Below, one piece after another: positions 12,828-37,576 of a DNA stretch of 53,370 bases (position 1 is the first letter of the stretch; each line of letters opens with the position of its first letter). The notes under the pieces were generated by a model. That model did not search any database. It had not been told where the DNA came from and saw nothing but the letters and a program-made list of their open reading frames with translations. Source of the DNA: a virus (Duplodnaviria > Heunggongvirae > Uroviricota > Caudoviricetes); the IMG/VR virus record IMGVR_UViG_3300029906_000160; one strand, written 5' to 3'. Both the position numbers and the translations under genes were made by a program.

Positions 12828-12859
12828 TTTGGATTTTTAAAAAATTATTTTTAGATTTG
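12828..12859 (+). promoter_or_regulatory. Bacteroidota primary-sigma promoter upstream of the capsid operon
   Basis: TTTG (12828-12831), 20-nt spacer, TAGATTTG (12852-12859), matching the -33 TTTG / -7 TAnnTTTG consensus. Confidence 0.75.
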
Positions 12860-12899
12860 CAACGTTTAATAGATATGAATTAATAAGAGAAAAAAGTTT

Positions 12900-14045
12900 A
12901 TGCCAGAAAACAAAAATTTAGAAATGTTTGATGATCTCTTAACTACAGAACGTGACGATTCGGTTCAGCCACAGCCTGGTGATCTTAGACCACTAGATCC
13001 AACGGATGATCCTATTCTTAATGATTTTGTAAACAGAGAGACAACTCAAGAAGGTGAAGAAGAACCACCACAGGATAATGATACTGGTAATGAAGAAGAT
13101 AAAACTCCTCCAGTTTCTAATTTCTTGTATGAATTCTTAAAAGAAAAAGGAATAGAAGATCCATCTAAGCTTCAATTTGAAAACGAAGATGGAGAAATTG
13201 AAGAAGTTGATTTTAATAGTCTAAGTGAAGAAGAAAAACTTAATATCATTAATAGTATTTCTGATCCTGGACTTAGTCAACACGAAACAGATGTTATTAA
13301 TTATCTAAGACAGAATAACGTTACTTTTAATCAGGTAATTGATTATTTCTCTAAGAAAGCTGTTGAAGATTATTTAGCACAAAATCCTGATCAAGCTCAT
13401 CAGAAAATATATACAATCGATGATTATACTGATGATGAACTTTATTTAGCCGATCTTAAGTCTAAATATCCAGAATTTACAGATGAAGAATTAACATCTA
13501 AATTAGAGAGTGCTAAATCAAATGAAACTTTATTCAAGAAAGAGGTTGACGCTCTTAGAGCAGATTATAAGAAACAAGAAGATGCTGAAATAGAAGCACA
13601 GAAACAGAAAGAGCAGCAAGATTATGATGATTTAGTTGGAAATTTACAGAATATTTTAAGTAATTTTAATGAAGTTGCTCTCGATTCAACTGATGCAGAA
13701 AGTGACGTTTTAGAAATAGAAGACTCAGATAAACAGCAAGTTTTAGCTTATTTGCTTAATCAAGATTCAGAAGGTAAAAGTCAATTGGTAAAAGATTTAG
13801 AAAATCCAGCTACATTGATTGAACTTGCTTGGTTAAGAACTCAAGGTAGAGCTTTAATAGATAATACAACAAGATATTGGAAAGATCTACTTAAACAAGA
13901 AAGAAAAGAAAAAGCTAAACTACAGAAAGAGCTTGAGTCTTATCAAAATAAAGGAAGCCAATCCGTAGTTGTTCCTAAACCTCCAAAGAAGGATGAAAAC
14001 TCCAACACGATTCCTACATTTGGTTCAGTTTGGGATAACATATAA
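12900..14045 (+). CDS. Acidic pre-capsid protein, probable scaffold (381 aa)
   Basis: Very acidic, coiled-coil rich, directly upstream of MCP; no TGA. Confidence 0.65.
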   Translation: MPENKNLEMFDDLLTTERDDSVQPQPGDLRPLDPTDDPILNDFVNRETTQEGEEEPPQDNDTGNEEDKTPPVSNFLYEFLKEKGIEDPSKLQFENEDGEIEEVDFNSLSEEEKLNIINSISDPGLSQHETDVINYLRQNNVTFNQVIDYFSKKAVEDYLAQNPDQAHQKIYTIDDYTDDELYLADLKSKYPEFTDEELTSKLESAKSNETLFKKEVDALRADYKKQEDAEIEAQKQKEQQDYDDLVGNLQNILSNFNEVALDSTDAESDVLEIEDSDKQQVLAYLLNQDSEGKSQLVKDLENPATLIELAWLRTQGRALIDNTTRYWKDLLKQERKEKAKLQKELESYQNKGSQSVVVPKPPKKDENSNTIPTFGSVWDNI

Positions 14046-14085
14046 TATAAACTAATGTAAAATTTAATTAAATTAATTTAAAATT

Positions 14086-17000
14086 ATGAGAATATCAGGT
14101 TTTACAACTACTAGACCTAACATGCCGGATACGAGAACTTATGAGGATTAATTAAGGTCCACTATTAAAGTAATTTGATAGTAAACATCTCTTTAATTGC
14201 TGGAACATCTCAAAGTTGGATGAGACAATCAGCAGTCAAAATTTAAATATTATATTTAAATAAGATTCAACGACTATTCGTAAGAAGTAAAATTATTTAA
14301 AATTTGAAATAAGAGATAACTTTATAAGTTAATAATATAGTCTAACCTTTATAGTGATATAAAGAATTTAGTGTTTATGAAGTTCTTGGGTGAATTTGCG
14401 CCCCAATTATAATTAAACATTACAATTGAAAATCTTGTGAATTGCTGGAAGCTATATTTTGTATATTGTAATCAGCAACTAATCCAAATTTAAATTGGAA
14501 AGCTCAACGACTATTCGTAAGAAGTAAGTTAAGTTAACTGAAGCGCAAGACATTGATGATATAGTCTAATAGTATTGGCAAATCCAGCGAGGTTAGGTAT
14601 CGTATCAACTCTGTATGATCAGTATACTGCAACTCACCTTACCGAAGCTCTCATGAATACATATACTCTTGAGAAAGGTAAGAAGAATCAGTTCCAGAGA
14701 GTTGACTCATTCTTAATTGAATGGGATCTTAATATTAATCGTATTAAGAGAGTATATATGACAGCAGTTCCTGAAGGTGATGGAGCAATGGGTTCTGACA
14801 TCCTCTTCCATTTTGCGGAGAACTACTATCAGAAGTATGATACATTTATTATTGAAAGAACTCGTCAGCAAATCATGGTTATGAATCGTCCACAGAGAGT
14901 TCGCGATAACGATTGGTTGATCGTAGGTAAACTTTTGGATAATAGCTATGATTCAGTTCTTGATACTAGTGGTGCGTTCGTAGGCTCTGCTACACGTTTT
15001 ATAACCAACATTATGCCTGAAATGCATGAAGAGGGTCAAGTATGGCTCTCTATAAAGTTTTCTAATTGCTCGAAACCCGCTCTTCTGATATTCTAAGGGT
15101 AACAAGCAGCGAAGATTTAATTTAATCACGTTCAACGACTATTCGTAAGAAGTATATAATTTATTATAGAAATGGAAACTAATTTTAAATGACTCGTCTA
15201 TAAAACAACTAATAAGAAAAATGGTAAATATTATATTGGAATTTCATATGAAGATTCAAATAATATGGATAAAAACTTTTTGGGATCTGGGATATATAAA
15301 AATGATCCATATACTTATCAATATTCTAAAACTCCATTACAATGAGCAGTTAAAACAGACGGAATAAATAATTTTGATAGAATTATAATTGGAGAATATA
15401 TAGATTATTGAAACGCAATTATTGTATTTGAAAATTTGGTTAATAAGATAACTCTTCAAAATAGAAATATTTATAATAATTTTTTACGAGGAGATTGTCC
15501 ACCACTCATTAATATTTTTGATACTAATGGTGGAAATGTTCTTGAAAAAGAAAGATTAATGAGTAAAGAATATGAATTTTATTATATAGAATCGTGTTTT
15601 AGTGGAAATTCCTTTTTAGATCCAATTACTAATAAATATGTTTATGCTTTACCTTGAAATATTTCAAATAAAAATGGAGAAATTAAATATGATCATTGTA
15701 GAAAACAGTATATTCAAAATCGCCCTGTCTTTAAATATAACGGAAAAACTGGAGAATTTATAGAAGAATATAATACTCAGGTAGAAGCCGAAAAAGCTAA
15801 TAAATATAGTAATATAACTAAATCTATAAAACTTAAAACTCCAGATAAAAACGGATTTATATGAGCTATATTTAAAGCAGATTATTATAATATTCCAGAT
15901 GAAAAAACTATTAAACTTATTGAAAGACGTGAAAGAAATCAAGCTAAGTTTGCAGCATCAAAAGCTCGTAGACGGGAAAGACTTGGATTAAAGCCAAGAA
16001 AAATTAAAGAAATAGTCTAATTATTATAGAAATATAATATAGATAATTGTATACTAAATATCAGAGCAATACGGAGAAACACCGTACTTATATGGCGACG
16101 CATCGTGCTGATGTAGATATGTCTGCACAGTACAAACCAATGGAGGATGTATTTATCCAGATTGGTAAGGGTCAGAAAGACGATCCAGTTTATAAGATGA
16201 ATTCTGCTGAGAAAGATTGTCTCGACACATTCATGATGGCTCGTAACAATGACCTTGTATGGGGTAAGACGGACGTAGATGAGAATGGACGTCCTTGAAA
16301 ATCAATAAATTACAGGGACCTTATAGCGGTGACGTTATAAGTAAAATCAATCAAATTGCTGGGAAATCCTAAAGTTCTAATAGCTACAACACAATCTAAA
16401 TGATAAATGTGAACGCTTGAAAATATTAGAAATTGGACAATCAGCAGCAAAGGCTCCTTTTGAAGGAGAATGTTCAACGACTAAATGTTTGAAATCTTAT
16501 GTATAATTATATCGTATATAAAACAACGAATATAGTTAACAACTATATTTATATTGGAGTTCACAGAACTAATTTAAAAAAAGACGATGGATATATTGGT
16601 TGTGGTTTAAGTAAAGGAGATCATGTATTTAAACAATATAAATTCCACAACGCAGTAAAAAAATACGGAAGCCATAATTTTAAAAGAGAAACACTTTTTA
16701 TTTATCCGGATACTGAATTAGGAAAAAGAAAAGCATATAAAAAAGAGGCTGAACTTGTAAATAGAGAATTTCTTAAAAGAAGGGATGTTTATAATACTTG
16801 TTTAGGAGGAAAAGTTCCGTCTTCTATAAATGAAAAACAAATAAATCAATATGATTTAGATGGAAATTTTATTAAGACTTGAAATTCTATTAAAGAAGCG
16901 GAGCGAGAGTTAAATATTTCTGATTCTGGAATTCAATCAGCTTGCAAAAAAGAAAGTTATTGTTGTAATTTTCAATGAAGATTTTTTAATGGAGATACTT

Positions 17001-20000
17001 CTAATATATCTCCAATTCAAACGAAAGAAAAAACAGTTTACCAGTTTGATTTACAAGGAAATTACATAACTTATTATAAATCAGTTAAAGAAGCTGAAAA
17101 TAAAACTGGAATTTCTTCTACTGTTATTAGTAGAGTTTGTTTAGGAAATCAATGTCAAGCTGGAGGATATTATTGAAATTATAAAAAGCGTTTTGATTTT
17201 AGAGAAAAGAAACAAAAGGTAACAGCTGTAGCATGTTATACGGATGAAGGTAAATTTATAAAATCTTTTACTTCGATAACAGAAGCAGCTAAAGAATATA
17301 ATGTAGGAGTTCCATCTATACATAAAGCAATTAGTGGGCAACGAAAGCATTGCGCAAAACTCAGATGGAGATACTTTTATGGAAATACTGATAATATATC
17401 CGCATTATAAGATTAAGATATAGTCTGCTCTATATAGAAATATATAGCTAACATTAAGGAAACTTTATGATCCTGAAACCGGAAGACCTCATCAAGGGGT
17501 TGTGTATTGGTGACAATATATTAAAATCTTCAGAATTGTTGGAAAATCTATTATATAGATAATCAACAGCCAAGACTTATTTTTAAGTAAGGTTTAACGA
17601 CTATTCGTAAGAAGTACTAAATAGGAAGTAGAAGACATCTAAATTTAATTAGATGAAGATATAGTCTCATCTTTATAGTGATATAAAGCTAAGAATAATG
17701 CTTATTTCAGGTGATGGAGTAATCGCTCAAATTGAAAGGTTTGCTACGAAGATGGTGTTCAATCGTCTTAACCCTAAATACTTTAATCGTGCTCTTCAGA
17801 TAATGATTCAGAAGAGTGAAAAGCCTAGAATAATCCCGTGGGCTTTTAAAATTCATCAAAGTGCTGAAAAATCTTAATATTAGATAATTAGCAACCAATT
17901 TAATGGTTCAACGACTAGTGGTAACACGTACAACAATGGAAATGATGAATAGTTATAATAACTAATAATATAGTCTCATCTTAATAGTAATATTAAGCTA
18001 AGAATTAGTATTGACGGGCAATACCTACATGTTCCTCTGCAACACTTTAGGAAATTAGAGTGGGTAATTAGTAATAATTACAATAATTAATCTCTTGAAT
18101 TATTGGAAAGTCCAAATTAGATTGGATAATCAATAACTAAGACTTAATACTTGAAATTGTATTAAGTAAAGCTTAACGACTAGCCATAAGGCGTACATGA
18201 TTTAAATATATTGTGGAAGTGAGAGATATCTTATTAAAGATAATGATATAGTCTAGTCTTTATAGTAATATAAAGTATTTTGTCGTAATGTGGACAGAAA
18301 TCCAGGAGACAATGAGCGCTTGGATTCGTGACTGGAAGACAGTAGGAACATTTGTATTCTCAAAGGCAGCTAATGGTTACGTTAACATTGGCGCAACTTA
18401 TCAGTCTTATGAATTTGCAGGTAAGAAACAGTATTGCCTGCTATAATTAAAAAATTATATAAAAAGTTACTAAATTGCTAGAAACTCTTTAAGCTAGTTA
18501 AACTACAATGTTGGACGAAAGATAAAACATGAACGTTTAAAAATTAATTAGATTAGACAACTAGCAGCGAATCTCCTAAGTCAAATAAGATATGGAGAAC
18601 GTTCAAAGACTATGCGAAAGCAGTAATAATTAAAAAAGTAAACATCCTATGGAATTAAAATGAATTGTATATATAACAATTAATCAATGTAATGGAAAAT
18701 TTTACATTGGAGTACACGAAACAAACCCAAATGTATGGGACAATTACATCGGGGACGGAATTTATAAACAAAGCGATGCAAAAAAAGACTTTCCTTTTCA
18801 TAAAGCTGTAAGAAAATACGGTTATAAAAATTTTAAAAGAACTACATTAGTAATATTTCCAGGTACAGAAGAAGGAAAAAAACAAGCATTTGCATTAGAA
18901 ACGATTTTAGTTAATAAAGATCTTTTAAAATCAAAACAATGTTATAATGTTGCTTTAGGAGGTCATGGAGGAGTAAATCCAGATTTAATGAGAAGAATTT
19001 ATATATTCGATTTAAATGGAAATTATTTACGTAGCTTTGAAAAAGCAAGAGATGTTGCTAAGTTTATAAATCCAAATGCAGATGGAGATGAAGAATATAA
19101 TATTATAAAAGCGATCAGAAATAATTGTTTAGGAACATCTTCTAGTTGTCATGGTTATTATATGAGTTATAAAAAAGAATTTCAATATAATAACGAATGC
19201 ATAATTCCTATAGCACAATATACTTTATCTGGAAAATTTCTTAGATATTTTAAAAGTATTATTGAGGCTGAAGAAGAACTACATATTTCTAATATATGAC
19301 AAGCAATTAATAAAAAAGGAAGTTCGGGTGGATTTCAATGAAGATATTACACTGGAGATCAATCAGATATCAGCACTTTGATCAACATCAAAACCCGAAA
19401 TACACAACTTCCAATTATAATGATCGATAAAGATACAAAAGAAGAAACTAAATATAATTCGGTTTCTGATTGTATTAAAGAGAATCCCAATTTATCTGCT
19501 TCACAAATTAATCGTGTGCTTAAAAAAATAATCAAATCACATAAAGGATTTGAATTTAAATATCAGGATGAAGATATAGTCTAATCTTTATAGAAATATA
19601 AAGTATATACGAATACTGTTACATTTAAGATTGATAGATCATTTGATATTGAATATCCTAATAGGAAATACGGAATATTCCTTGATTTAACGGCTGATGC
19701 AGCTAGTGGTAAGCCTGCCGTTGAAGAATTTGCAGCGGCAGCATAGAGTGATCTATGTTTAAAAATCCTTTTAATTGCTGGAAAGCTAAGTCTATTTAGA
19801 TATGCTAATCAGCAGCTAATTTATAGTTCAACGACTAACCATACGGTGTAGATTTAATCGAAATAAAGGAAAACTAGAAATAGTTTGTGATATAGTCTGA
19901 ACAATATAGAAATATATTGATTAACAATAAATGTGCATTCTTTACGTTTAAAAATGGTGAATTTATCCACAACTTTATTAGAGGCGTTAACTAAGCTCCA

Positions 20001-20346
20001 AACCAGCGCCAAATTGTAGTAATACAGTTTTAAAAATTTATTGAATTGCTGGAAAATATTTAGATAATATAATCAGCAGCGAATAAAATCGTTCAACGAC
20101 TATCCTTACGGAGTACAATTTTAATTGGAAGTAATAAATAACCAATTCTGGTTAATGATATAGTCTAAAATAACACAAATTAAAAGTTATATTTGTGGTG
20201 GGGCAACAGGACTTCAACATGGCGAAGTAAGCTCACCAGTAGCAGCTTCTAAGCTCATAAACTGAGGTTATGCAGCTTGTGGAGTCTTCAATCCTTATCG
20301 TTCCGTAATTCTTATTTCAGAAGAAGTATCTAATTACTTATTCTAA
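14086..20346 (+). CDS. Major capsid protein, 11 exons, 475 aa spliced
   Basis: Exons 14086-14148, 14374-14391, 14578-15036, 16050-16295, 17460-17489, 17701-17826, 18014-18047, 18286-18422, 19612-19721, 19934-19987, 20196-20346 sum to 1428 nt. They give an open frame MRISGFTTTRPNMPDTRTYED|FMKFLG|ANPARLG...VFNPYRS...YLF resembling Crassvirales MCP. Confidence 0.85.
14149..14373 (+). mobile_element. Group I intron 1 (225 nt)
   Basis: 5' exon ends in U, intron ends in G; aattgctggaa, aatcagcag, ttcaacgacta, atatagtct core; IGS gtcc pairs with ggat. Confidence 0.85.
14392..14577 (+). mobile_element. Group I intron 2 (186 nt)
   Basis: Core motifs present; P10 atttgc pairs with the 3' exon gcaaat; terminal G. 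Confidence 0.85.
15037..16049 (+). mobile_element. Group I intron 3 (1013 nt) with homing endonuclease
   Basis: IGS gctctc pairs with gagggt; agtat pairs with the 3' exon; core motifs flank an ORF. Confidence 0.85.
15172..16020 (+). CDS. Intron-encoded GIY-YIG endonuclease (282 aa, TGA=Trp)
   Basis: METNFKWLVYKTTNKKNGKYYIG; open through TGAs to TAA 16018-16020, which overlaps the P7 3' strand. Confidence 0.8.
16296..17459 (+). mobile_element. Group I intron 4 (1164 nt) with homing endonuclease
   Basis: IGS gggac pairs with gtcct; extended P5 region; P8 arms aatcttat/ataagatt flank the ORF. Confidence 0.85.
16499..17410 (+). CDS. Intron-encoded GIY-YIG endonuclease with three NUMOD1-like repeats (303 aa)
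   Basis: IVYKTTNIVNNYIYIGVH; repeats of QYDLDGNFIKTWNSIKEA type; TAA 17408-17410. Confidence 0.85.
17490..17700 (+). mobile_element. Group I intron 5 (211 nt)
   Basis: IGS gggtt pairs with gacct; aattgttggaa / aatcaacag / tttaacgacta / aagatatagtct; terminal G. Confidence 0.85.
17827..18013 (+). mobile_element. Group I intron 6 (187 nt)
   Basis: IGS gggctt pairs with aagcct; P10 cccgt pairs with acggg; P3 attcatca/tgatgaat. Confidence 0.9.
18048..18285 (+). mobile_element. Group I intron 7 (238 nt, phase 1)
   Basis: IGS gagtg pairs with cactt; P10 atta/taat; the join gives CNT-L-MW. Confidence 0.75.
18423..19611 (+). mobile_element. Group I intron 8 (1189 nt) with homing endonuclease
   Basis: IGS gcctgc pairs with gcaggt; P10 cagtatt/aatactg; P8 catcct/aggatg. 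Confidence 0.9.
18649..19584 (+). CDS. Intron-encoded GIY-YIG endonuclease with NUMOD1-like repeats (311 aa)
   Basis: MELKWIVYITINQCNGKFYIGVH; track ORFs 18988 and 19378 are in this frame; ends QDEDIV-TAA across P7. Confidence 0.85.
19722..19933 (+). mobile_element. Group I intron 9 (212 nt, phase 2)
   Basis: IGS gcggc pairs with gccgt; P10 tgca/tgca; core motifs. Confidence 0.85.
19988..20195 (+). mobile_element. Group I intron 10 (208 nt, phase 2)
   Basis: IGS gcgcc pairs with ggcgt; P10 acca/tggt; core motifs. Confidence 0.85.
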
Positions 20347-20362
20347 AAACACATATAAAGTT

Positions 20363-20400
20363 CTCCCTCTTGAAATATAGAGGGAGTTAACTTTATTTTT
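20363..20400 (+). terminator. Hairpin / probable terminator after MCP
   Basis: ctccctct-tgaaatat-agagggag then ttaactttattttt. Confidence 0.6.
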
Positions 20401-20446
20401 ATTAGATTTATATATAATAGACACAGTTAATAAAAGTAAAAATACA

Positions 20447-21283
20447 ATGACAGATTATCTAGAAAATAAAATAATTACCTTACGTTCAGTTTTTGGTAAA
20501 TTCAAAGAGTATCATTTTCAACCATGTAAACAACGTAACGGTTTAAATCATCCATTTGTAAAGAAAGTTAGATATAATGCTGATGGTTCATCTGAAATGA
20601 TCTTATCCAACGAAGATCTTAACAATCCAGAATCACAGTATTTTATTCCAGAAGATATGGATATTGTAGTTACTGATGGTACTACATTTGATTTATCAGA
20701 TCCTCTTCAGCGTAATAAGTGGCTTGCTATTAAAGATTCAGATCTCATAGTACCTACACGTGACGCTAAAGACGAACATGGTAATTTAATTATAGATGGA
20801 GATAAACGTAGATATGGACTAGCTGAAATCTGGGTAGATGTACCTGGTGAGCAATCAGAAAAAGCAGTTAGTCGTAAGAAGCTTATCACTAAAGCTTGGA
20901 CTTTCATTGAGAATGATTCAGTTGAAGGTCGTTTAACTAAATGTAAGTTACTTGGACGAGTTATGCGTAATGCACCTGCATCTGATGTAATGGATTATCT
21001 TTATCAGAAAGCAGAAAAGAGTCCAGCAACAATTATTGAGCTCTATACTAGTAGCGATATGGCTCTAAAACTTCTTGTTATTGATGCAAAAGATCGTGGC
21101 AAGATTGTAAAAGTAAACGGAATGTGGATGTACGGCGATAACATTCTTGGCGCTACTGATGATGCCGTTATTCAGTTCTGTAAAACACCAGCAAATAAGA
21201 AAGTTCTTGATATGCTTAAAGCTGATGTTTATCCTGAATATGCAAGACAGACAGAGAATGAAGATTCTAAGTCTGCAAAGTAA
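20447..21283 (+). CDS. Conserved post-capsid virion/assembly protein (278 aa)
   Basis: Intact ORF, all 4 Trp are TGG; position directly after MCP. Confidence 0.7.
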   Translation: MTDYLENKIITLRSVFGKFKEYHFQPCKQRNGLNHPFVKKVRYNADGSSEMILSNEDLNNPESQYFIPEDMDIVVTDGTTFDLSDPLQRNKWLAIKDSDLIVPTRDAKDEHGNLIIDGDKRRYGLAEIWVDVPGEQSEKAVSRKKLITKAWTFIENDSVEGRLTKCKLLGRVMRNAPASDVMDYLYQKAEKSPATIIELYTSSDMALKLLVIDAKDRGKIVKVNGMWMYGDNILGATDDAVIQFCKTPANKKVLDMLKADVYPEYARQTENEDSKSAK

Positions 21284-21319
21284 TAGAAAATAATATAAAC
21301 TTTTAAATATAGACAGCCA

Positions 21320-22249
21320 ATGACTGCAAGAGAAATGTATGAATACGCTCTGATAGAATGTAATAAATTGGAAGCTCCATCATTACTTCTTGAAGACTAT
21401 AATTATTTTATTAACAAGGCTGTCCAACAGTACATAAATTTGATTTATAATCGTTATGATATGAATCAACAAAGTACTGATGATCTTCGAGTTTTAAAAA
21501 CTTCCGCAGTTATTCCTTTAGTTAAAGGAGGAATTGGCGAAGGAGGAATTGGCGAAGGAGGAATTGGCGAGGACTTTACTCAGTCTGCTTTATTTGGAGC
21601 ATCTTTCATAGGAGAACTTCCTAAGGATTATCTACACATGCTTAATTGTATAGTAGAGTATAAAGTAGCAAAGCCATTTAAATGCTATGAACCAGCAGAA
21701 AAAGTACAATTTGCTGCACGTAGATTAACTTCAGATATGTTCTCTGGAATTCTCAATAATGCTTATATGCGTCCAATGTACAAAAGACCTTATTATTATG
21801 TAAATAACTGGAATCAACAAGTTGAACTTCCAACTAATGAAGAAATGGATTCTCAAATTCCAGAAAGTGCAGAAGGTCTTACTAGTAATACATCTACAGT
21901 AGATTCAATTAAACCTACTCAAGGACGTAATGCAAATGTAACTAAAGTGTTACTTGAGATTCGTTTTGGAAAAGATTCTGCTTTATTTACTCCTGAAAGA
22001 GCTTATGTAGATTATCTTAAAGGTCCTCAATTTATCAGACTTACACAAGCACAAATTGACAAGACAGAAGATACATCTCAAGTTCTCGAATTTCCTGATT
22101 ATGTTTGCTTTGAAATCGTTAATATATTTACTAAACTCTTAATGGAAAATTCTAGTGATCCAAGACTTCAAACAAACATTCCAATTAATCAAACAATTCC
22201 TAGCGGCGCTCAAACACAACAAGCCGCTCAACAGCAACAAGGACAGTAA
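21320..22249 (+). CDS. Head-tail adaptor/ring-like protein (309 aa)
   Basis: MTAREMYEYALIECNKLEAPSLLLEDYNYFINKA N-terminus and LEFPDY C-terminus resemble Crassvirales neck ring proteins; recognition only. Confidence 0.55.
   Translation: MTAREMYEYALIECNKLEAPSLLLEDYNYFINKAVQQYINLIYNRYDMNQQSTDDLRVLKTSAVIPLVKGGIGEGGIGEGGIGEDFTQSALFGASFIGELPKDYLHMLNCIVEYKVAKPFKCYEPAEKVQFAARRLTSDMFSGILNNAYMRPMYKRPYYYVNNWNQQVELPTNEEMDSQIPESAEGLTSNTSTVDSIKPTQGRNANVTKVLLEIRFGKDSALFTPERAYVDYLKGPQFIRLTQAQIDKTEDTSQVLEFPDYVCFEIVNIFTKLLMENSSDPRLQTNIPINQTIPSGAQTQQAAQQQQGQ
21527..21571 (+). repeat. 15-nt tandem repeat x3, (GGIGE)3
   Basis: ggaggaattggcgaa twice plus ggaggaattggcgag. Confidence 0.95.
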
Positions 22250-22279
22250 TATATTATTAATTTTTAATTAGATTAAACT

Positions 22280-23410
22280 ATGTTTCAATATACACACGAA
22301 GTTATAATTAATTCTCTTACCCGTGATGGTCTTGATAGACTTCAGCCATCTGCTGGTGTTCTTCAAATTCTCCGTTCTGGAGTTTATAAATTTGAGCACG
22401 TAGTTGACGGTAAGATTTATAAAACCGCAGGATATGAAGGTAAAGTTTCTAGCCTTATGTTTGACTTTACCGATACTTCTGCATTCGCTGAGGATGGTAC
22501 TTATAGACTTACTATCTTCACAAAGATGCCAAATAAATTCCTTGGAGAATACGCAAACGCCAATTGGTATGAATTTGGTAAGCCACTTATGGTAGAATTT
22601 GAGTGCGTTGGTGCAATGACAGCTGAAATACTTATGAATAAGGTAGCTAAAGCACTTAGACTTGCTCTTCCAGAAAACAATCAGTGGCTTAAAATTACTA
22701 CTGGCGACACTTCTAAGGTAACTGTACAGACTAAAGATCCTTATATGATCTTCTCTGGAGTTGAACTTGAATACTACGAGCCTACTGCTTGTGATTCTTG
22801 CGTTGGTTACTATGAGAAGAAAGATCTTTCTAAGAATGTGACTGTAGAAAACGGACGTGAACCATTTGCAACTGCAGCTTGGATTACAGAGAACCTTCGT
22901 TTCCCTTCTTATCCAAATGTACGTTATGCTTCTCCTAATTCTGATGAAATTCCAATTCCTGGTGCAATTTATAATATGTATTCATTTGCATATGATGTTG
23001 TACGTAAAGGACTTGGTGGACTTTCAGTAGTAGGTCAGAAAGCTGAATCTGTAACTCGTCATATCTATTATGTTCGTCAGGATCTTGCAGCAGCGTTTGA
23101 AGCAGCTGTAGAAGAAGCTTTTGGAGCAAACGTTATTATCGAAAATAACGCTTCTTACATTCTTGGTGCAGGTACTGTAGCTAATGATGGCGTTGCAGTA
23201 GAACTTAAAGCAGAAGTTGTTCCTGCATCTGATTCTGTAACGTTTACTTGGGCACTTGGAGAAGATGCTGTTGAAGGAATAGACCTTTCTGGTGCAGCTT
23301 TAACTGTTGAAAGTACTGTTCCTGCTGGAACTAAGTTTACTGTAACAGTTACTCCTAGTGATAGTAATTATAAATCAGCATCTAGAGTTCTTGAAGTAGT
23401 TCAAGGCTAA
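22280..23410 (+). CDS. Abundant structural protein (auxiliary-capsid-like) with C-terminal Ig-like domain (376 aa)
   Basis: Biased codon usage, TGG-only Trp, C-terminal beta-rich VELKAEVVPASDSVTFTW...FTVTVTP. Confidence 0.55.
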   Translation: MFQYTHEVIINSLTRDGLDRLQPSAGVLQILRSGVYKFEHVVDGKIYKTAGYEGKVSSLMFDFTDTSAFAEDGTYRLTIFTKMPNKFLGEYANANWYEFGKPLMVEFECVGAMTAEILMNKVAKALRLALPENNQWLKITTGDTSKVTVQTKDPYMIFSGVELEYYEPTACDSCVGYYEKKDLSKNVTVENGREPFATAAWITENLRFPSYPNVRYASPNSDEIPIPGAIYNMYSFAYDVVRKGLGGLSVVGQKAESVTRHIYYVRQDLAAAFEAAVEEAFGANVIIENNASYILGAGTVANDGVAVELKAEVVPASDSVTFTWALGEDAVEGIDLSGAALTVESTVPAGTKFTVTVTPSDSNYKSASRVLEVVQG

Positions 23411-23421
23411 TATTAATATAT

Positions 23422-23455
23422 AGGCGGTGGAACCTAAATCCGCCGCCTTTTTTAT
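23422..23455 (+). terminator. Strong intrinsic terminator
   Basis: aggcggtgga / tccgccgcct stem then a T-run. Confidence 0.9.
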
Positions 23456-23464
23456 TTTTCAACT

Positions 23465-24130
23465 ATGAAAATTAACGAAATTGCATCGGCTATTTATAAT
23501 GATGTAATGTCTGGGTTAGTTAATATAACAAGTGATCCAAATATATCATTAGAACAATTAGAAGATGAAGTAGTTGAAGAAAGACAATCCGTAATTAAAG
23601 AATGGTGATATAAAAATATTATAAATCCTAAAGATTTATTATTAGCTATAAATTGTATTCCTGTTGATTGTGCTGATCCTGCTAAATGTTGTAAATTTCA
23701 TTTAGCTAAACCAACACATCATTTTGAAATTCCACAATTAATGAATGATCTTGGAGAAGACGCTATTGAATTTGTTGGATCTGTTGATCGCGAAGTACAA
23801 TTTAAATTTTATACATCTACATCATATCAATATCATAAATATAAGCGTAATAAATCTAACGAACCTTACGTTTATATAGAAACTACTCCAAACGAACATG
23901 GAATGTATGATGGATGAATTTATAATGCACCATTTATTAAATATATATCAGTAATAGGTATATTTAAAGATCCAAGACAATTAGATCATTTTGATTGTTG
24001 TCGAACTTACGAATATCTTGACATAGGCCCAATATCTAGCGAAGTTAAGAAAAGATTAACACAACGTAAATTCTATTACTATCGACAAGCATATCCTGGA
24101 CCTCGTCCTGATAATAATATTCCTACTTAA
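23465..24130 (+). CDS. Neck/ring-like structural protein (221 aa, TGA=Trp)
   Basis: MKINEIASAIYND...IGIFKDPR; open to TAA 24128-24130, coupled to the next ATG. Confidence 0.7.
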
Positions 24131-24822
24131 TGAAATTTTACGATTTAAATGCAGCTTATTCTCTTGCTAATACTTTATATGGGGTTGATCCTTCACCTAC
24201 AGATTTTGAAGATATTGCTTTAAATGCCTGAATTTTAATTAATAATAAACATACTCGTTTATATAAATATGTTGGAGATACAGAAGATCATGAACTAGCG
24301 CTTCCTTGTAATGTAGATATTATTGAATCTGTACACATTCCAATTGAAGATGCACAGATGACTTCTAACCAAACCGTATTTAATTCAATTGAAACTCTTT
24401 TTATAGAAAATTATATAAATTGCTGAAAACGTATAGACGATCCATATTATCAAACTGGAAAATTAGTAAAATATAAAGAAGGTGATAATACTCTTTATTT
24501 TACTCGTGATTATAAAAGAGTAATGGTTATATATCATGGAATTCTAGTTAATGATGAAACAGGACTTCCAATGATTACAGATAAAGAAATGCAAGCAATT
24601 GCAGCGTACATTGGATTCGCTATGTTATATAAAGAATCTCTTAGAAAGAAAGATGCAAATCTAATGAAGATGGCACTTCAAGTAAAACAAGAATGATTAA
24701 GAGCTTGTAGTGCTGCAAGAGTTCCAGAGCATCTTTCTCAGAATGATATGGATAAAGTTCTCGACGCAAGTGTAAGATGGGATAGAAAACAATACGGTAA
24801 AAGCTTTAAAGGTGTTTTATAA
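24130..24822 (+). CDS. Neck/ring-like structural protein (230 aa, TGA=Trp)
   Basis: TAATG-coupled start; 3 TGA and 1 TGG; TAA 24820-24822. Confidence 0.7.
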
Positions 24823-24829
24823 TAATTGT

Positions 24830-25291
24830 ATGGATTGAAAAGAAGGTAAATGAGTTAATACGTGAAGTTTTACATCTCAAGATTTATTTGATAATATAAA
24901 TTTTGCTCAATTTGGCTGAACACACGCTTTTTATAAACTATTAAAAACAGATCGCTGAAAAAAATTAGTTGGAATGGTGTTTACATATTTCATGTACTTA
25001 GTTATTTTGGATATTATCGAAAATAATGTTACATTTGAATTACCATTAAAGGGTGCTGCACAGGGTGAATTTTACGTAAAATCGTTTACAGGAGAATCTT
25101 TTAGAAAACTATATCAAGCTGGTAAATGATCAGATATAGATTTTTTAAATAGTGATTTTACAGGTTATCAAATATATTTTAGATATAAAACTAAACGAGG
25201 AGATTGAAAAGAAAAACCAGTATATTTATCGCATAAAAATGCAAGAGATATATTTCATAAAAAGATTAATGAAGGAAAGAAATACTATTAG
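24830..25291 (+). CDS. Putative IHF/HU-like protein (153 aa, 7 TGA-Trp)
   Basis: MDWKEGKWVNTWSFTSQDLF...LVILDIIENNVTFELP...KINEGKKYY-TAG; function inferred from helix-helix-strand pattern and position. Confidence 0.55.
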
Positions 25292-25293
25292 CT

Positions 25294-25923
25294 ATGCAAT
25301 TAGCTTATCCAGAAAAATATTACGAAAAAGTTAAGGAGCGTTTTCCAGAATTAACTTATCGTGAAATAGATACTATAGTTAAATTTGGATTACGCTCTTT
25401 ATTTATAAATTGTGGATATGGTGGGGACATATTGTTACATTCTCCATATTTTACAATGTATATAGGAAAAATATTTAACGATAAAATAAAATTTTTTAAT
25501 TATAGAGTTATAAAAGAATCTATAAAACTTAGAATTAAATATAAAAGAGCTAAAACTCAATGAGATGGATATTACTACTTTGGATTATCTGATAAAGAAT
25601 TTGAACAATATTTAACTAATTTTAGAGAATTTGGTCAAGGTAATAAATCTAAAGGAGCGAGACGAAGAAAAATAACATTTCCAAAAATTAAATGTTATAA
25701 ACTTTTAGAAGAATGTAAGATTCATCCGATAAATAAACACATCTTTAGATTAAAATATCCTGAAGATGTTGGATTTACTTTTTGAAAAGAAAATTACGCG
25801 ACGTATAACGCACAATATATATTAAGAAGAAAAGATGATGAATGAGAATCAATAGAGTATAAAACTACTCGTTACGGTAATAAATATGTAAATCATTCAT
25901 ATTTAAATAAACAAAAGAAATAG
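25294..25923 (+). CDS. Putative IHF/HU-like basic protein (209 aa, TGA=Trp)
   Basis: Track ORF extends through 3 TGA to TAG 25921-25923; basic; FPELTYREIDTIVKFG...GGDILL. Confidence 0.55.
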
Positions 25924-25926
25924 ATT

Positions 25927-26754
25927 ATGGCGAGACAAGAAGCAGAAACTATTATAGGAACTGTTTATAAAATAACTAATATAATAAACAATAAAGTTTA
26001 TATTGGAGAAACAATTATGCCTATGAAAAAAAGATTTCAAACACATTTAACATCCGCTTTTAACGCCAAGTCAAACACATATAATTATTATTTTCATAGA
26101 GCTATAAGAAAATATGGAAAAGACGCTTTTATTATTGAATGTTTAGAAACAATAGAAGGAAATTTTCAAAAGTGGGTTAAAAAGAAAATTCAACAACTAG
26201 AAAAAAAATATATAAAACAATATAAATCAAATGATCCATTAGTTGGCTATAATTCAGATTCTGGAGGATTAGGAGGAAGGATTCCAAATATAGAAGTTAG
26301 ACAAAAACAAAGCCAAATAAAGAAAAATGATCCAAAAACAAAAGAAAGATTGGATTACGCTAGATCTTTTAATAAGAGTGAAAAAGAAATAAGACAATAT
26401 AATTATTATACTGGTGAATTTATAAAAGAATATAAATCAATTAAGAATGCTTCTGAAGAATTAAATTTAGATGATAGTAGTATAGTAAAATGTTGTAAAC
26501 ATCCAAATAAACATAAATATTTAAAAGTAAATAATATTAAATATACTTTTAGATATAAATCTGAAGATTATATTCCAGTTTATACTATAAAAATGACATT
26601 AGAAGACAATAGTTTTGTAGATTATTTAATAGATACAGTACAATGTTATGAAAAATATCATATAGATAGATCTCAAATTGTTAGATGTTGCAAAGGAAAA
26701 AATAATTATGCTGGAAAATATAATAATTTAAAAATGTTATGAAGCTATGTCTAG
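25927..26754 (+). CDS. Free-standing GIY-YIG homing endonuclease
   Basis: VYKITNIINNKVYIGET, a NUMOD1-like repeat (QYNYYTGEFIKEYKSIKNA), no intron core nearby; TGA 26740 then TAG 26752-26754. Confidence 0.85.
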
Positions 26755-30302: not shown

Positions 30303-33300
30303 ATGGATATTAAATTATCGGTTAAAAAATATAATCAAGAAGGCGATATGGCTCATGAATATAGGCCATTAAGAAATAAATTACTTGCAGGTGAACAACA
30401 AGATCCAAAAGTTAATCCGAAAGACTTAACTGATTTTCGAACAAAAGAAATTAATGTTGATCTTGATAATCCGCTTAATATTGAATGTCAACCTTCTTAT
30501 GATGGTACAGTAAATCTTATCATTAATGATGATAAAAATCCACCTAGAATTATTAATACTAGATTTTCTGCCATAGAAGATAATAGATTCAGAATTATCA
30601 ATCGTAATCAAAAGGAACAAACTAATATTTATGAAGAGACAATGATTGACCAACAAACACGTCTCTTTAGGAATTTAAATTTTATTCCAAGAATCCAATT
30701 AGTATCTGTAGATTATTTTGGACAATTAAAAGGTGGAAATTATACATTTTATGTTAAATTTGCAGATAACGATTTTAATAAAACAGATGTAGTTTGTGAA
30801 AGTGGACAAATTTCTATATTTAATGGAACCTTAACTTCTCCAAAAACTATAACTGGAACTCTTCAAGATGAACGAACAGATAAGGCTGTAACTATTAGAA
30901 TTAATAATATAGATACTTCATTTCAGAAAGTTTATCTCTATTATACTCGTGAAACTTGTGATGCTAATGGTTCTAGAATTACAGAAGTAGCGATGATTAA
31001 AGAACCTTATGATATTAAGAATAATTATCTTGATATTACTATAAATGGATTTGAAGAAATAGAAGAGATAAGTGAATCTGAATTAAATATACGATACTTA
31101 TATGTAGATAGAGTTAAAACTCAGACACAAAATCAAGGAATGCTGTTCTTTGGAAATGTTGAAATGAGCACAATTGATCCTAGAGATTTACAAGCTCTAT
31201 CTTTATATATAAATGTTGAATTAACACATAAAACAGAATCAATTGGATATGTTGATACTAACTACGAAGGTCAAAAAACAGATGATGCAGAACAAATAGA
31301 ATATTATAATCCACAAAACGTTTATTATAATCTTGGATATTGACCAGATGAAATGTATCGTCTTGGTATAGTTTATATAATGAGAGACGATAGTTTATCT
31401 GAAGTCTTTAACTTAAGAGGAATTAAATATAGTTTAGGAAGGGAAGATATTCCAAGTGTATTATCTAATATTGATGATACTACTTCTAGTGAAGTTACTG
31501 CTGAATATCAACAATGATATGAGCGTGAAGATGAAAACAAACCAATTGAAGAACGTAAAATTAATTATATTCCAAAAGAAGACTTTATTTTAAATGGACA
31601 ACATTTAAATAATACAATGGGAGTATTTAAACTTCCCGCAGATATTCAAATTTTTGATCATAATAATTCAAAAACACATCCTTGAGGATTTAAAATTAGC
31701 ATTAAATCGGATCTTAGAGAAAAATTAAGATCTATGGGAATTAAAGGATTTTTTATTGTAAGACAAAAAAGAATTCCAACTACATTATGTCAAGGATTAT
31801 CGATCGGTATTGATAGAACTAGTCACGTACCTACAATTCCTATTTTCGAAGAAACTAAAAATGGAGACACAATATCATATAAAACACGTTACATAACAGA
31901 AGGTTTTATAGATGATAATGGAACACTTAGCACAAATTTTAAAAAGAAAACAAGTGATTTTAAAGCAACTTCTGCTTTGTTATCTGTAGATTCTTGTGTA
32001 ACTCCGATATTACAATCAATGTTTGATGGATCTGAATATACAATTCAATCTTATGAAGCACGTTGAATTAAAAATCAACAAGATAATAGAATTTTTACTG
32101 CCGAATATGATGAAACTTTATTAAAGAATAAGAATGAATTAACAGGAATTCAAACTATAGAGTCACAAAAATTAAATACAATATTTGTGCAGGGAGATGT
32201 TCCTTTTAAATATATAGCTAACCAAAGTTTTTCTACTAGAGCTGGAGTTGCAGAAGATGTACAACAAATTGCATTCTTTGATCAACAAAATTATAAAGAA
32301 GATTATAGAAATCTTTTACGTGGAATTTGGTGTCCAATATTAGGATTATCAAGTAATATTAAAGATGCTTGAATTTATAACGTTAAAGTAAAAAACTTCT
32401 CTAACGTATTTGAACAAGAATATTTTAAAATTCGAGGTAATGATAATTCCCCATTCTATGCAATTAGTGATAGATGAGCGATTGATGATCCAAAGTCAAA
32501 CGAAATAGAAGTATACAGAGGAGATTGTTATACTTGTACAGTAAGTATGAGATTACAACGTAACTTTGTAGATTCTGATGTTCCTGTAAACGAAACAATT
32601 GTTGATCCAAATACTTGAAAAGATCATTATCATGGATATAATACTACTGATGAAGAAGATTGATTAGATATTAATAGAGGTGATGTAAATACTTCTCCAA
32701 TTGGTTCTTGAATTACTTGAAAATGTTTTAGTAATTATAATTTAGGATTAAGATCTCAAGATTATACTAATGTTGAAGAAATGGCACTTATGGGTAATCC
32801 TCGTTCATTCTATCCTATTACTGGAGCATCTACTTCAGTGGCTAACAAAATAGACGAATCTTGAAAACTAAATGATGGTTATTCTTCAACTGTAGGAAAG
32901 AAATATTTTCTTCCAGTTCAAGATGTACCGTATACAAGAGACATATTTGACACAAGAATTATGTTCTCTAATGTTCAGCAAGACGATGCTTTTCAAAATG
33001 CTTATAGAATATTTCAAGGTTTGTCTTACAAAGATATGGATAGACAATATGGAGCTCTTGTTAAATTAATTACTTGAGGTTCTAATCTATTAGCAATCTT
33101 TGAACATGGGATTACAATCATTCCTGTTAACGAGAAAGCGTTACTTACTACAAATACAGGCCAATCTGTACACATGTATGGTGCAGAAGTATTACAAAAT
33201 CAAATGACTGTAATATCTCAAGATTATGGTTCTATTTGACCAGAATCTATTATTAGAACACCAATTGCTGTATACGGAGTAGATACCTATGCAAAGAAAA

Positions 33301-34955
33301 TTTGAAAACTTGGAGTATCTAACGATTTTACTTTAATCTCTGATGCAAAAATTCAAAGATTCTTAAATGATCATATTAGACTTAAAGAGAAAGATAAATA
33401 TCCAACAGTAGCATTAAGAAATGTAAAATCACATTATAATAACTATAAAGGTGATATAATGTTTACTTTCTATAATGATACAGAAGAGGAAGAATGAAAT
33501 ATATGCTATAACGAGAGACTTGATAAATGGTCTACTAGATATTCTTGGATTCCACTTTATTCAGACAATGTAAATAATATATATTATTCATTAGATAAAA
33601 AGAGATCTGAAATACTTGCTTATATATATGATAATATTAATGCAGAAGCTGGCATTGTTAGTTTAGATAATAACAGTAATGTTTGAAGTAATTTAAATAA
33701 TAATCATACTGTCACATTTAGTATTAAGTCATATGATTTTTATAAATACTTTAAATTTGAAATCGAAGCTATTAAATCTTCATATATAAATGAAAATGGA
33801 GTTGAACAGATTGTCATTTTACCATGAAAGCCTCAAGAATCAGATTGATTAGCTAATGTTAGAATCAATAACAATAAAATAGAAGCTTATGGTTCTGAAG
33901 CAGAATTAGCTAATAATAAGCAAGGAAAGTTAATTTTATCTAAAGACGCTCTTTCTACTTACGACGGACATAAATTATATTATTGATATTTTATTGTAAA
34001 AGCTACTCCTTATACAACAGCAGAAAATAGTGATAAACTTATAACTGGAGAAACTTTTAATACAGTCTTTGGAATTGTTACAGATTATAATAAATTAAAT
34101 GGTCCAGATGACGATCCAAATAGTGATAAGTTTAAATATAATGAATTACTTAGAAATGGATTCTATATTCATGGTCGTGCTGGAATATTTGATGAAATTA
34201 ATTACTTTAATGAAGACGTAAGCAAAGAAGATCAAATAATGCCAACTACATGATACGATAAACAAGAACCATTTGAATTTGAATTTGTAGTTAATGAACC
34301 TACTGGATTACATAAAATATTTAACAATCTTGTTATTATCTCTAATAATGTTCAACCTTCTGAAATAGAATACGAAATAGTTGGAGATGTTTATGGATTT
34401 AATAAAGCTGGAATATTCTGAAAACAGAATAAGAATTATTGAGAAAAACGTGAAGATCCAGATTCATATAAATCTAAAGAATGAGGAGATTATAATACTC
34501 CAGTTCAATTACTTCCAGATAAAGATACAGAATTTGTAAAAGGAAATGAGTTATCTAAAGATTCTCAAAGATTACCTTGAATTAAAGATAATCCAGCTAA
34601 AACTTCAGAAGACTTTAAAAATACTACTGTTGAATGAGATCCAATTTTAAATCAATATCTTCTTAAAGTAAATCAACCTTGCTATGATATTAAAGAATAT
34701 GGACGTATGAGAGGTAATATTACATATAAAGAGGATGCTTGATATTTAACCATAGATCCAATTCTATTTAGAAAAGCAGATACAGAAAATGCAGAGTATG
34801 GAGTAACTGGAAATACGGATATTGATGAAAAAAGACAGGATTATAAATCAACTCGTATTAGAGATAAATGATGCAAGATTAGAATAAAATATACAGGAAA
34901 AGATTTGGTTTTAATTAGTGCGATTAAAACTATGATAACTATGAGTTACGCATAA
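30303..34955 (+). CDS. Tail stabilisation/muzzle-like protein (~1550 aa, TGA=Trp)
   Basis: Track ORFs 30303, 31734 and 32187 are in frame; C-terminus RIRDKWCKIRIKYTG...ISAIKTMITMSYA-TAA. I read parts of 33100-34700 less closely. Confidence 0.7.
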
Positions 34956-37068: not shown

Positions 37069-37100
37069 TTTGGAAAAGTCAAATATTTTTTATAATTTTG
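37069..37100 (+). promoter_or_regulatory. Bacteroidota-type promoter for cargo genes
   Basis: TTTG (37069-37072), 20-nt spacer, TAATTTTG (37093-37100). Confidence 0.7.
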
Positions 37101-37174
37101 AGACCGAGTCGAGAAATAACAAATTAATAAAAGATTTTTTATTATAGTTTAACGTTAAATTAATTAATTATACT

Positions 37175-37576
37175 ATGAAAATTGTAAAAAACTCAGATCG
37201 AGTACAGAAATTTCAGCAAGGAGGACCCGCTCCTATGCCTCAAGATCCTGCTCAGCAACCTGCAGCTCAACCTCAGGGACAAAATGATCCAATTCTTGAG
37301 ATCGCTAACATCTTTATGCAGGGTCTTCAAACTCAAAATTGTGAATTGCTTGCACAAGGTGCTCAAGCTTTCTTAATGTTACTTCAGCAAGCACAAGGTG
37401 GAGCAGAACAGCAAGCTCCTGTAGGCGAACCACAAGGAGAACCAGTCTTTAAGAAAGGTGGTAAAATCTGTGGTCGTAAAAAGAAAGTAAAGAAGGATTG
37501 CAATGGAGGAAAAGTTGCTAAAAATTGTGGTGGCGGTTCCTTTAAGAAATGCAATGGTGGAACTATGAAGAAGTAA
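37175..37576 (+). CDS. Small Gln/Pro-rich protein with basic Cys-x-Gly-Gly tail (133 aa)
   Basis: Intact ORF between a promoter and a terminator; FQQGG, FKKGGK, CNGG/CGGG repeats. Confidence 0.8.
   Translation: MKIVKNSDRVQKFQQGGPAPMPQDPAQQPAAQPQGQNDPILEIANIFMQGLQTQNCELLAQGAQAFLMLLQQAQGGAEQQAPVGEPQGEPVFKKGGKICGRKKKVKKDCNGGKVAKNCGGGSFKKCNGGTMKK

Follow-up and report, generated by a model that had tools for sequence, protein, structure and literature searches.

In the 53,370-nucleotide stretch of DNA from the Caudoviricetes virus record IMGVR_UViG_3300029906_000160 that we analysed here (the window), TGA is read as tryptophan, and the operon encoding the capsid shell is almost free of it. A preliminary description of the sequence had counted by hand one TGA and 18 TGG codons in the putative scaffold gene, the major capsid protein (MCP) gene and the three genes that follow, against 15 TGA and two TGG codons in the four genes past the terminator closing the operon (23465-25923), and our recount gave identical numbers. 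We define this capsid block as what lies between the promoter-like site (12828) and the terminator (23422), leaving out the open reading frames (ORFs) for homing endonucleases that lie within introns. The remaining non-endonuclease genes of the window contain 154 TGA and 28 TGG codons, a strongly different ratio (Fisher p=2.2e-12). The best reading of this pattern, and in our judgement a probable one, is translational selection against a costly recoded stop codon in very highly expressed genes. The features of the block and of the genes directly downstream are listed below, with TGA:TGG counts for the coding sequences.

12828-12859, plus strand: promoter-like motif of Bacteroidetes type, TTTG-N20-TAGATTTG, fitting the consensus TTTG-N20-TAnnTTTG; candidate promoter
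12900-14045, plus strand: putative scaffolding protein, 381 amino acids, very acidic, 0:3; role suggested by its composition and its position directly upstream of the MCP gene
14086-20346, plus strand: MCP gene, 11 exons and 10 group I introns, 475 amino acids, 1:6; Rfam and homology
15172-16020, plus strand: intron homing endonuclease ORF, GIY-YIG-like, 5:0; PHROG 314/19446
16433-17410, plus strand: intron homing endonuclease ORF, 4:1; PHROG 314, 2e-25
18649-19584, plus strand: intron homing endonuclease ORF, 3:1; PHROG 314, 5e-24
20263-20265, plus strand: lone in-frame TGA of the capsid operon, the Trp of NWGY in the last MCP exon
20363-20386, plus strand: GC-containing hairpin of 8 bp directly past the MCP stop, then a weak T-rich tract; possible partial terminator
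20447-21283, plus strand: 278-amino-acid protein, 0:4
21320-22249, plus strand: 309-amino-acid protein, 0:1
22280-23410, plus strand: auxiliary capsid protein, 376 amino acids, 0:4; homologue of crAss001 gp36
23422-23458, plus strand: intrinsic terminator closing the capsid operon, 10-bp stem with 7 GC pairs, T-run
23465-24130, plus strand: tail ring protein 2, 2:1; Pfam CrAss_Ring_2, 7e-8
24130-24822, plus strand: tail ring protein 1, 3:1; Pfam CrAss_Ring_1, 3e-7
24812-25291, plus strand: 159-amino-acid protein, 7:0
25294-25923, plus strand: 209-amino-acid protein, 3:0

The contrast is visible even within the MCP locus, where the three intronic endonuclease ORFs contain 12 TGA and two TGG codons and the exons around them one and six. 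This excludes a regional mutation bias and ties the difference to the reading frame.

The window has a GC content of about 29%, and every gene lies on the plus strand. With TGA read as tryptophan, long open frames cover 0.90 of the window, against 0.49 under the standard code; the stop codon of every listed gene is TAA or TAG, and the TGA codons align with tryptophans of standard-code relatives. A Pfam match to P22_portal (1e-11) identifies the gene at 3-1784, which has five in-frame TGAs, as the portal gene, a match to crAss_MUZ (2e-27) identifies the product of 30303-34955 as a crassvirus muzzle protein, and the conserved order of auxiliary capsid, ring, muzzle and portal proteins of crassvirus type is present. 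The 80 relatives found in IMG/VR, on contigs of up to 204 kb, fall into three code groups, with TGA read as Trp (L003-L028), TAG read as Gln, or the standard code. Phages of the Zeta group have genomes of 145-192 kb, many introns and code switches between close branches (PMC7886860); the relatives' contigs measure 165-204 kb. Because the three codes among the relatives and the dense introns fit this group, we take the window, judging by its sequence, to be the late region, coding for the virion, of a crAss-like phage of the Zeta group that reads TGA as Trp. The closest complete relative, G001 (the record behind L003), is 176,910 bp long and about 80% identical to the window at the nucleotide level. 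It carries a plus-strand block of early genes, at about 16.5-88 kb, most of which have no TGA and many TGG codons; the window itself covers late genes only. Since these early genes of G001 are almost without TGA, the host very probably treats TGA as a stop.

Base composition does not account for the preference for TGG. At the other NNR codons, the share ending in G is 21% in the capsid block and 10% elsewhere, and taking 0.21 as the expectation, 18 TGG among 19 tryptophan codons has a binomial probability of 9.5e-12. Outside the block, TGG makes up 15% of tryptophan codons, in line with AAG (15%) and CAG (14%), and TGA the other 85%, against some 90% of A-ending codons at the other NNR. This match indicates that the genes outside the block are at compositional equilibrium, so that only the shell genes deviate. 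The idea that TGA load tunes stoichiometry, put forward in the preliminary description, therefore does not hold as it was stated. The same description had named a difference in GC content at third codon positions (GC3) as what could explain the bias away. GC3 is indeed higher in the capsid block (0.16-0.41 against about 0.10 elsewhere). In G001, though, early-strand genes with a GC3 down to 0.11-0.2 use TGG almost exclusively, which means that the use of TGG is independent of GC3; with the NNR control pointing the same way, GC3 fails to account for the bias.

The depletion is conserved. In all 13 lineages of the TGA clade for which flanking data were available, the TGA share of the capsid block was below that of its neighbours, and in three of them (L011, L017 and L027) the block contains no TGA at all. 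Pooled over the 13 lineages, TGA:TGG counts were 0:39 for the auxiliary capsid protein, 8:78 for the MCP, 3:33 for the 278-amino-acid protein, 8:27 for the scaffold and 4:7 for the 309-amino-acid protein. The corresponding counts for the flanking genes were 24:3 for a 659-amino-acid protein encoded upstream, 20:11 and 41:27 for ring proteins 2 and 1, 22:3 and 22:2 for the 159- and 209-amino-acid proteins and 33:14 for a protein of 1184 amino acids. With 4:7 in the pool and 0:1 in the window, the 309-amino-acid protein is not clearly TGA-avoiding. When only tryptophan sites in common with a standard-code relative were considered, the capsid genes had seven TGA and 71 TGG codons and the other genes 26 and 18. 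It is therefore the conversion of TGG to TGA that differs, and not the origin of new tryptophans.

These comparisons also bear on whether composition or history could have produced the pattern, either through the higher GC3 of the block or through an arrival of the block from a standard-code relative too recent for its TGG codons to have decayed. The raised GC3 and what look like imports of TGA-free fibre genes in G001 lend this some plausibility. However, a G-ending share of 0.21 at other NNR codons is far from that of TGG, and the low-GC3 early genes use TGG as well. Nor is the pattern confined to one genome: it is present in 13 lineages whose capsid genes are 55-80% identical, and the relatives rank in the same order of identity for capsid and flanking genes, which gives no sign of a recent import. 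Furthermore, all 27 sequences have TGG at MCP position 76 even though their divergence is saturating. We regard composition or history as a very improbable explanation; selection against TGA in the capsid genes remains the better one.

A second recoding in the same phage family shows the same tendency. In the sister clade reading TAG as Gln, which is an independent and parallel recoding, TAG makes up 12-17% of glutamine codons when the MCP, 278-amino-acid and auxiliary capsid proteins are combined; in the downstream genes its share is 57-61% (Fisher p between 2e-5 and 3e-4).

The genes concerned also stand out in their ordinary codon usage. In TGA-recoded, TAG-recoded and standard-code relatives alike, the MCP and auxiliary capsid genes favour NNC at the expense of NNT and make more use of AAG and CAG, and across 11 genes the TGA share correlates negatively with general codon bias (Spearman -0.77, p=0.005). 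Profile searches of solved structures with the 278-, 309- and 376-amino-acid proteins gave no credible match, PHROGs had nothing for the proteins of the capsid block, and a protein-atlas look-up with the 376-amino-acid protein gave sub-threshold leads only. The AlphaFold model of the product of 22280-23410, in contrast to these searches, was matched by Foldseek to 7qof_a, a crAss001 capsid protein of 333 residues (E 9e-10). This chain is the auxiliary capsid protein gp36, and gp36 and the MCP are present in nine copies each per asymmetric unit of crAss001 (PMC10172136). The two genes with the lowest pooled TGA shares are thus the two whose crAss001 counterparts have this copy number, which bears out the earlier proposal that TGA avoidance in the operon falls on high-copy shell proteins.

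We infer that the capsid genes are the most highly translated genes of the phage, and we propose the following mechanism. AT-biased mutation would turn TGG into TGA wherever this is tolerated, and most late genes would have reached equilibrium at about 85% TGA. In the capsid-shell operon (scaffold, MCP, 278-amino-acid protein and auxiliary protein), purifying selection would remove TGA, as each recoded stop, being suppressed slowly or incompletely and leading to premature termination, would cost yield or fidelity. The cost of a TGA would scale with the amount of protein required, and would be highest for proteins such as the auxiliary capsid protein, which is expected to be equimolar with the MCP and present in hundreds of copies per virion. 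It would presumably stem from competition with RF2 or from a limited suppressor capacity. The avoidance of TGA would then be the ordinary codon bias of these genes taken to an extreme.

In another explanation, it is timing and not cost that is selected. The capsid operon would be kept compatible with the standard code and be translated before, or independently of, the switch to TGA=Trp, and the TGAs in genes for tail, cargo and lysis would delay the translation of these genes. Such temporal gating would agree with the conserved host-type promoter motif and strong terminator of the operon, with the near-complete depletion in several lineages, such as the three with no TGA in the block, and with published models in which recoding acts as a late-gene timer and integrases avoid recoded stops (bioRxiv 10.1101/2021.08.26.457843). 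However, the block is not compatible with the standard code: TGAs occur in the MCP of the window, of L005 (four) and of L006 (three), and scaffolds have up to three. In the TAG clade, the scaffold contains 16-18 TAGs and the MCP 3-5. The portal, which is needed for procapsid nucleation, has its five TGAs, and a timing switch does not predict a graded depletion that tracks codon bias. We therefore hold temporal gating to be unlikely and favour a cost of recoded codons that grows with expression.

What this cost consists of depends on how TGA is decoded. The preliminary description had named competition with the host RF2 as the limit, which is plausible. No tRNA with a UCA anticodon was found in the window, nor in G001 with ARAGORN and the Rfam tRNA model; such a tRNA is encoded by G002, G003 and G006, three relatives of the TGA clade. 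The late genes of G001 are heavy in TGA read as Trp, yet neither a UCA tRNA nor a release-factor gene was detected in that genome. As G001 lacks a detectable UCA tRNA, decoding may rely on near-cognate reading in some lineages. A search for release-factor domains in five relatives returned no match, a blank that does not prove their absence. If TGA were decoded ambiguously, as Trp, as near-cognate amino acids or by termination, it could be fidelity more than yield that is at stake, with the proteins of the shell lattice being least tolerant of errors and keeping TGG for this reason. The patchy detection of the UCA tRNA and the fact that the two shell-lattice proteins show the strongest avoidance are in keeping with this. 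The alignment of TGA codons with tryptophan positions of standard-code relatives argues against it, as does the codon bias, which is a classic signature of selection on speed and yield, though compatible with selection on accuracy too. We give fidelity as the main force little credence, somewhat less than temporal gating, and retain the cost in yield of highly expressed proteins as the preferred explanation.

Several observations weigh against this explanation and set limits to it. The scaffold of the TAG clade is an exception, being undepleted at 55% TAG. The lineages compared are related to each other, so that the pooled counts and the 11-gene correlation overstate independence. In the otherwise TGA-rich late block of G001, two tail-fibre genes of very low GC3 have no TGA (0:6 and 0:4; L099:10433-13122, corresponding to G001 150430-153122, minus strand); these genes may be recent imports from a standard-code phage, but a TGA-free state is in any case not exclusive to high-copy genes. 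The giant proteins of the window have 14-27 TGAs apiece, so suppression must be efficient, which limits the cost per codon. The base 3' of sense TGA codons (A 50%, G 26%, T 17%, C 7%) has a distribution not significantly different from that following other NGA codons (p=0.14), and there is thus no direct signature of an avoidance of release-factor contexts. Finally, our sole proxy for the level of expression is copy number by analogy with the distant crAss001, and the roles of the scaffold and of the 278-amino-acid protein are only putative.

The single TGA of the block had been proposed to act as a checkpoint, giving truncated capsid protein until recoding is on. Its location at 20263-20265 (...LINWGYAAC...), 26 sense codons ahead of the TAA at 20344-20346, is confirmed; it lies within a conserved C-terminal motif, and if it were read as a stop, 27 residues would be lost. 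The codon itself is not conserved. Among 25 TGA-recoded sequences, the Trp of NWGY is encoded by TGA only in the window, L005 and L006, and by TGG in the 22 others, including the closest relative, L003, which has an MCP TGA at alignment position 255 instead. The MCP TGAs of recoded relatives are scattered over alignment positions 140, 255, 332, 342 and 454, and many of these MCPs have none. In addition, position 20265 is G in related contigs from the public sequencing runs X1, X2 and X3 (A>G), and A is kept in one run. With a pooled TGA share of 9% per MCP tryptophan codon, at least one TGA among seven codons is expected 48% of the time. The preliminary description had itself named a TGA position that varies among relatives as refuting the idea, and the gate codon is refuted on these grounds. 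The lone TGA is a chance variant kept at mutation-selection balance, either neutral or slightly deleterious.

The count for the MCP relies on its reconstruction from 11 exons (14086-14148, 14374-14391, 14578-15036, 16050-16295, 17460-17489, 17701-17826, 18014-18047, 18286-18414, 19604-19721, 19934-19987 and 20196-20346), four of which are tiny (18, 30, 34 and 54 nt). The ten introns, of 186-1189 nt, interrupt a coding sequence of 1.4 kb, and three hold the endonuclease ORFs; matches to the group I intron model Rfam RF00028 are spread over 14139-20170. Junctions were placed by homology to the intronless MCPs of L002 and L004 (tblastn to L002), with a U at the 3' end of each exon and a G at the 3' end of each intron. 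The spliced product of 475 amino acids is colinear with the intronless MCPs of relatives (473-475 amino acids) and about 50% identical to that of L002, a syntenic relative whose MCP matches Pfam Crass_capsid (4e-14). Pfam gave no direct match for the MCP exons of the window or for the L004 MCP, so the assignment rests on homology by transitivity via L002. Contigs of related phages assembled from public runs join 15036 to 16050 and 17826 to 18014, and span the gap from 14149 to 14578 with only 17 letters in between, similar to the 18-nt micro-exon; these contigs, in which RNA and DNA origin are not distinguished, support junctions only and cannot rank expression. Intron content differs among relatives, several introns being absent from the public-run contigs, and an open-frame coverage of 0.97 under code 4 suggests that L004 and L026 have few or no introns. 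We also considered a constraint of intron homing sites on the exons as the cause of TGG retention. It could cover the MCP only and was rejected, as it leaves the auxiliary protein, the 278-amino-acid protein and the apparently intron-poor L004 and L026 unexplained.

Regarding the other features of the operon, the site reported as a promoter at 12828 fits the consensus, and each of the 13 lineages of the TGA clade that were examined has the motif 5' of its scaffold gene, but as a motif alone it is not enriched in the window (six found, 3.2 expected). The terminator at 23422 is a strong hairpin (23422-23448) with a T-run, and its equivalent recurs past the auxiliary capsid gene in TGA-recoded, TAG-recoded and standard-code relatives. 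The weaker hairpin past the MCP stop could attenuate transcription into the downstream capsid genes. The scaffold had no Pfam or PHROG match. For the 278-amino-acid protein, which is conserved in the capsid operon, no counterpart was found among the crAss001 virion structures searched; its AlphaFold model (pLDDT 83) gave only local helical matches, SAP-like and RecA C-terminal-domain-like, and modules of this kind hint at DNA binding. The TGA-rich neighbours of the capsid block are the ring, muzzle and portal proteins. Between the genes for the 209- and 1184-amino-acid proteins lies a free-standing gene for a GIY-YIG-type homing endonuclease (25927-26754), where the standard-code L002 has no gene. 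A second promoter-like motif of Bacteroidetes type (37069-37100) precedes a gene for a 133-amino-acid protein (37069-37576 including the motif), which has a raised GC content of 0.42 and no tryptophan. Its product, rich in Gln and Pro towards the N terminus and ending in a very basic tail rich in Lys, Cys and Gly, is possibly a DNA-binding internal protein.

According to current accounts, stop codon recoding in phages is mainly a timer or lock on late and lysis genes, and structural genes are the recoded class. Here, within a single late module, it is the presumably most abundant structural proteins that have been cleared of the recoded codon. That one phage family shows this in two recodings independent of each other, TGA and TAG, suggests that the former stop still has a measurable cost during infection. 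Depletion of the reassigned stop in capsid-shell genes may even be a general rule of alternatively coded phages, a tentative suggestion that we consider less likely than not. If it holds, the change of code in the infected cell is never complete, because release factors go on competing or the suppressor capacity stays limited. The proportion of recoded and canonical codons in each gene would then report, at the level of the genome, on the demand for its protein and on how efficient suppression is in vivo, and the view that structural genes are recoded for delay would have to be qualified. A comparison of the share of recoded codons with protein copy number offers a simple test of the cost of a recoded stop. 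Selection against this cost would explain why the MCPs of recoded phages often look 'standard-coded', which is relevant to code prediction and to the use of the MCP as a marker for the genetic code of a contig.

Several known systems invite comparison. In programmed readthrough and stop-based autoregulation, as for the Q-beta A1 protein or prfB, an in-frame stop codon serves a regulatory function. Likewise, two products could in principle arise from a capsid gene with one in-frame stop close to its 3' end, but the sites of such systems are conserved in position and context, and the MCP TGA of the window is not.

Classical codon usage bias is strongest in the most abundant proteins. The preference for NNC, AAG and CAG in the same genes, conserved across relatives, is of this kind. 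Unlike in the classical case, the disfavoured codon here is a reassigned stop, so that its cost would include termination by release factors, and the avoidance is near-absolute (0:39 in the auxiliary protein), whereas other codon pairs shift modestly.

In the literature, quantified accounts exist of how recoded stops are enriched in lysis genes and avoided by integrases. For recoded crAss-like phages, an MCP free of stops has been noted twice, each time as a single case (PMC7886860; 10.64898/2026.08.21.746148), and we found no publication that quantifies the depletion across the capsid-shell operon or relates it to codon bias. The Zeta-group phages described by Yutin et al. 2021 (PMC7886860) and in the Lera phage paper (PMC12386605) have, like the relatives studied here, TGA, TAG and standard-code branches and dense group I introns, including in the MCP gene. 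In contrast to our analysis, the stop-free MCP appears there as a remark on a single genome, given without a count, a composition control or a comparison of clades, and is not extended to the auxiliary capsid protein or the operon.

The published work on recoding as timing likewise describes an uneven distribution of recoded TGA or TAG among genes, with early genes compatible with the standard code and late genes recoded, and proposes selection to 'enrich or deplete' recoded stops in particular families. There, recoded stops are reported as enriched in lysis and tail genes and as avoided by integrases, and timing is invoked for both. In the window, the depleted set is instead the capsid-shell operon, which lies inside a recoded late module, and as the depletion follows codon bias by degrees and is seen with TAG as well as with TGA, it points to a cost of expression and not to timing.

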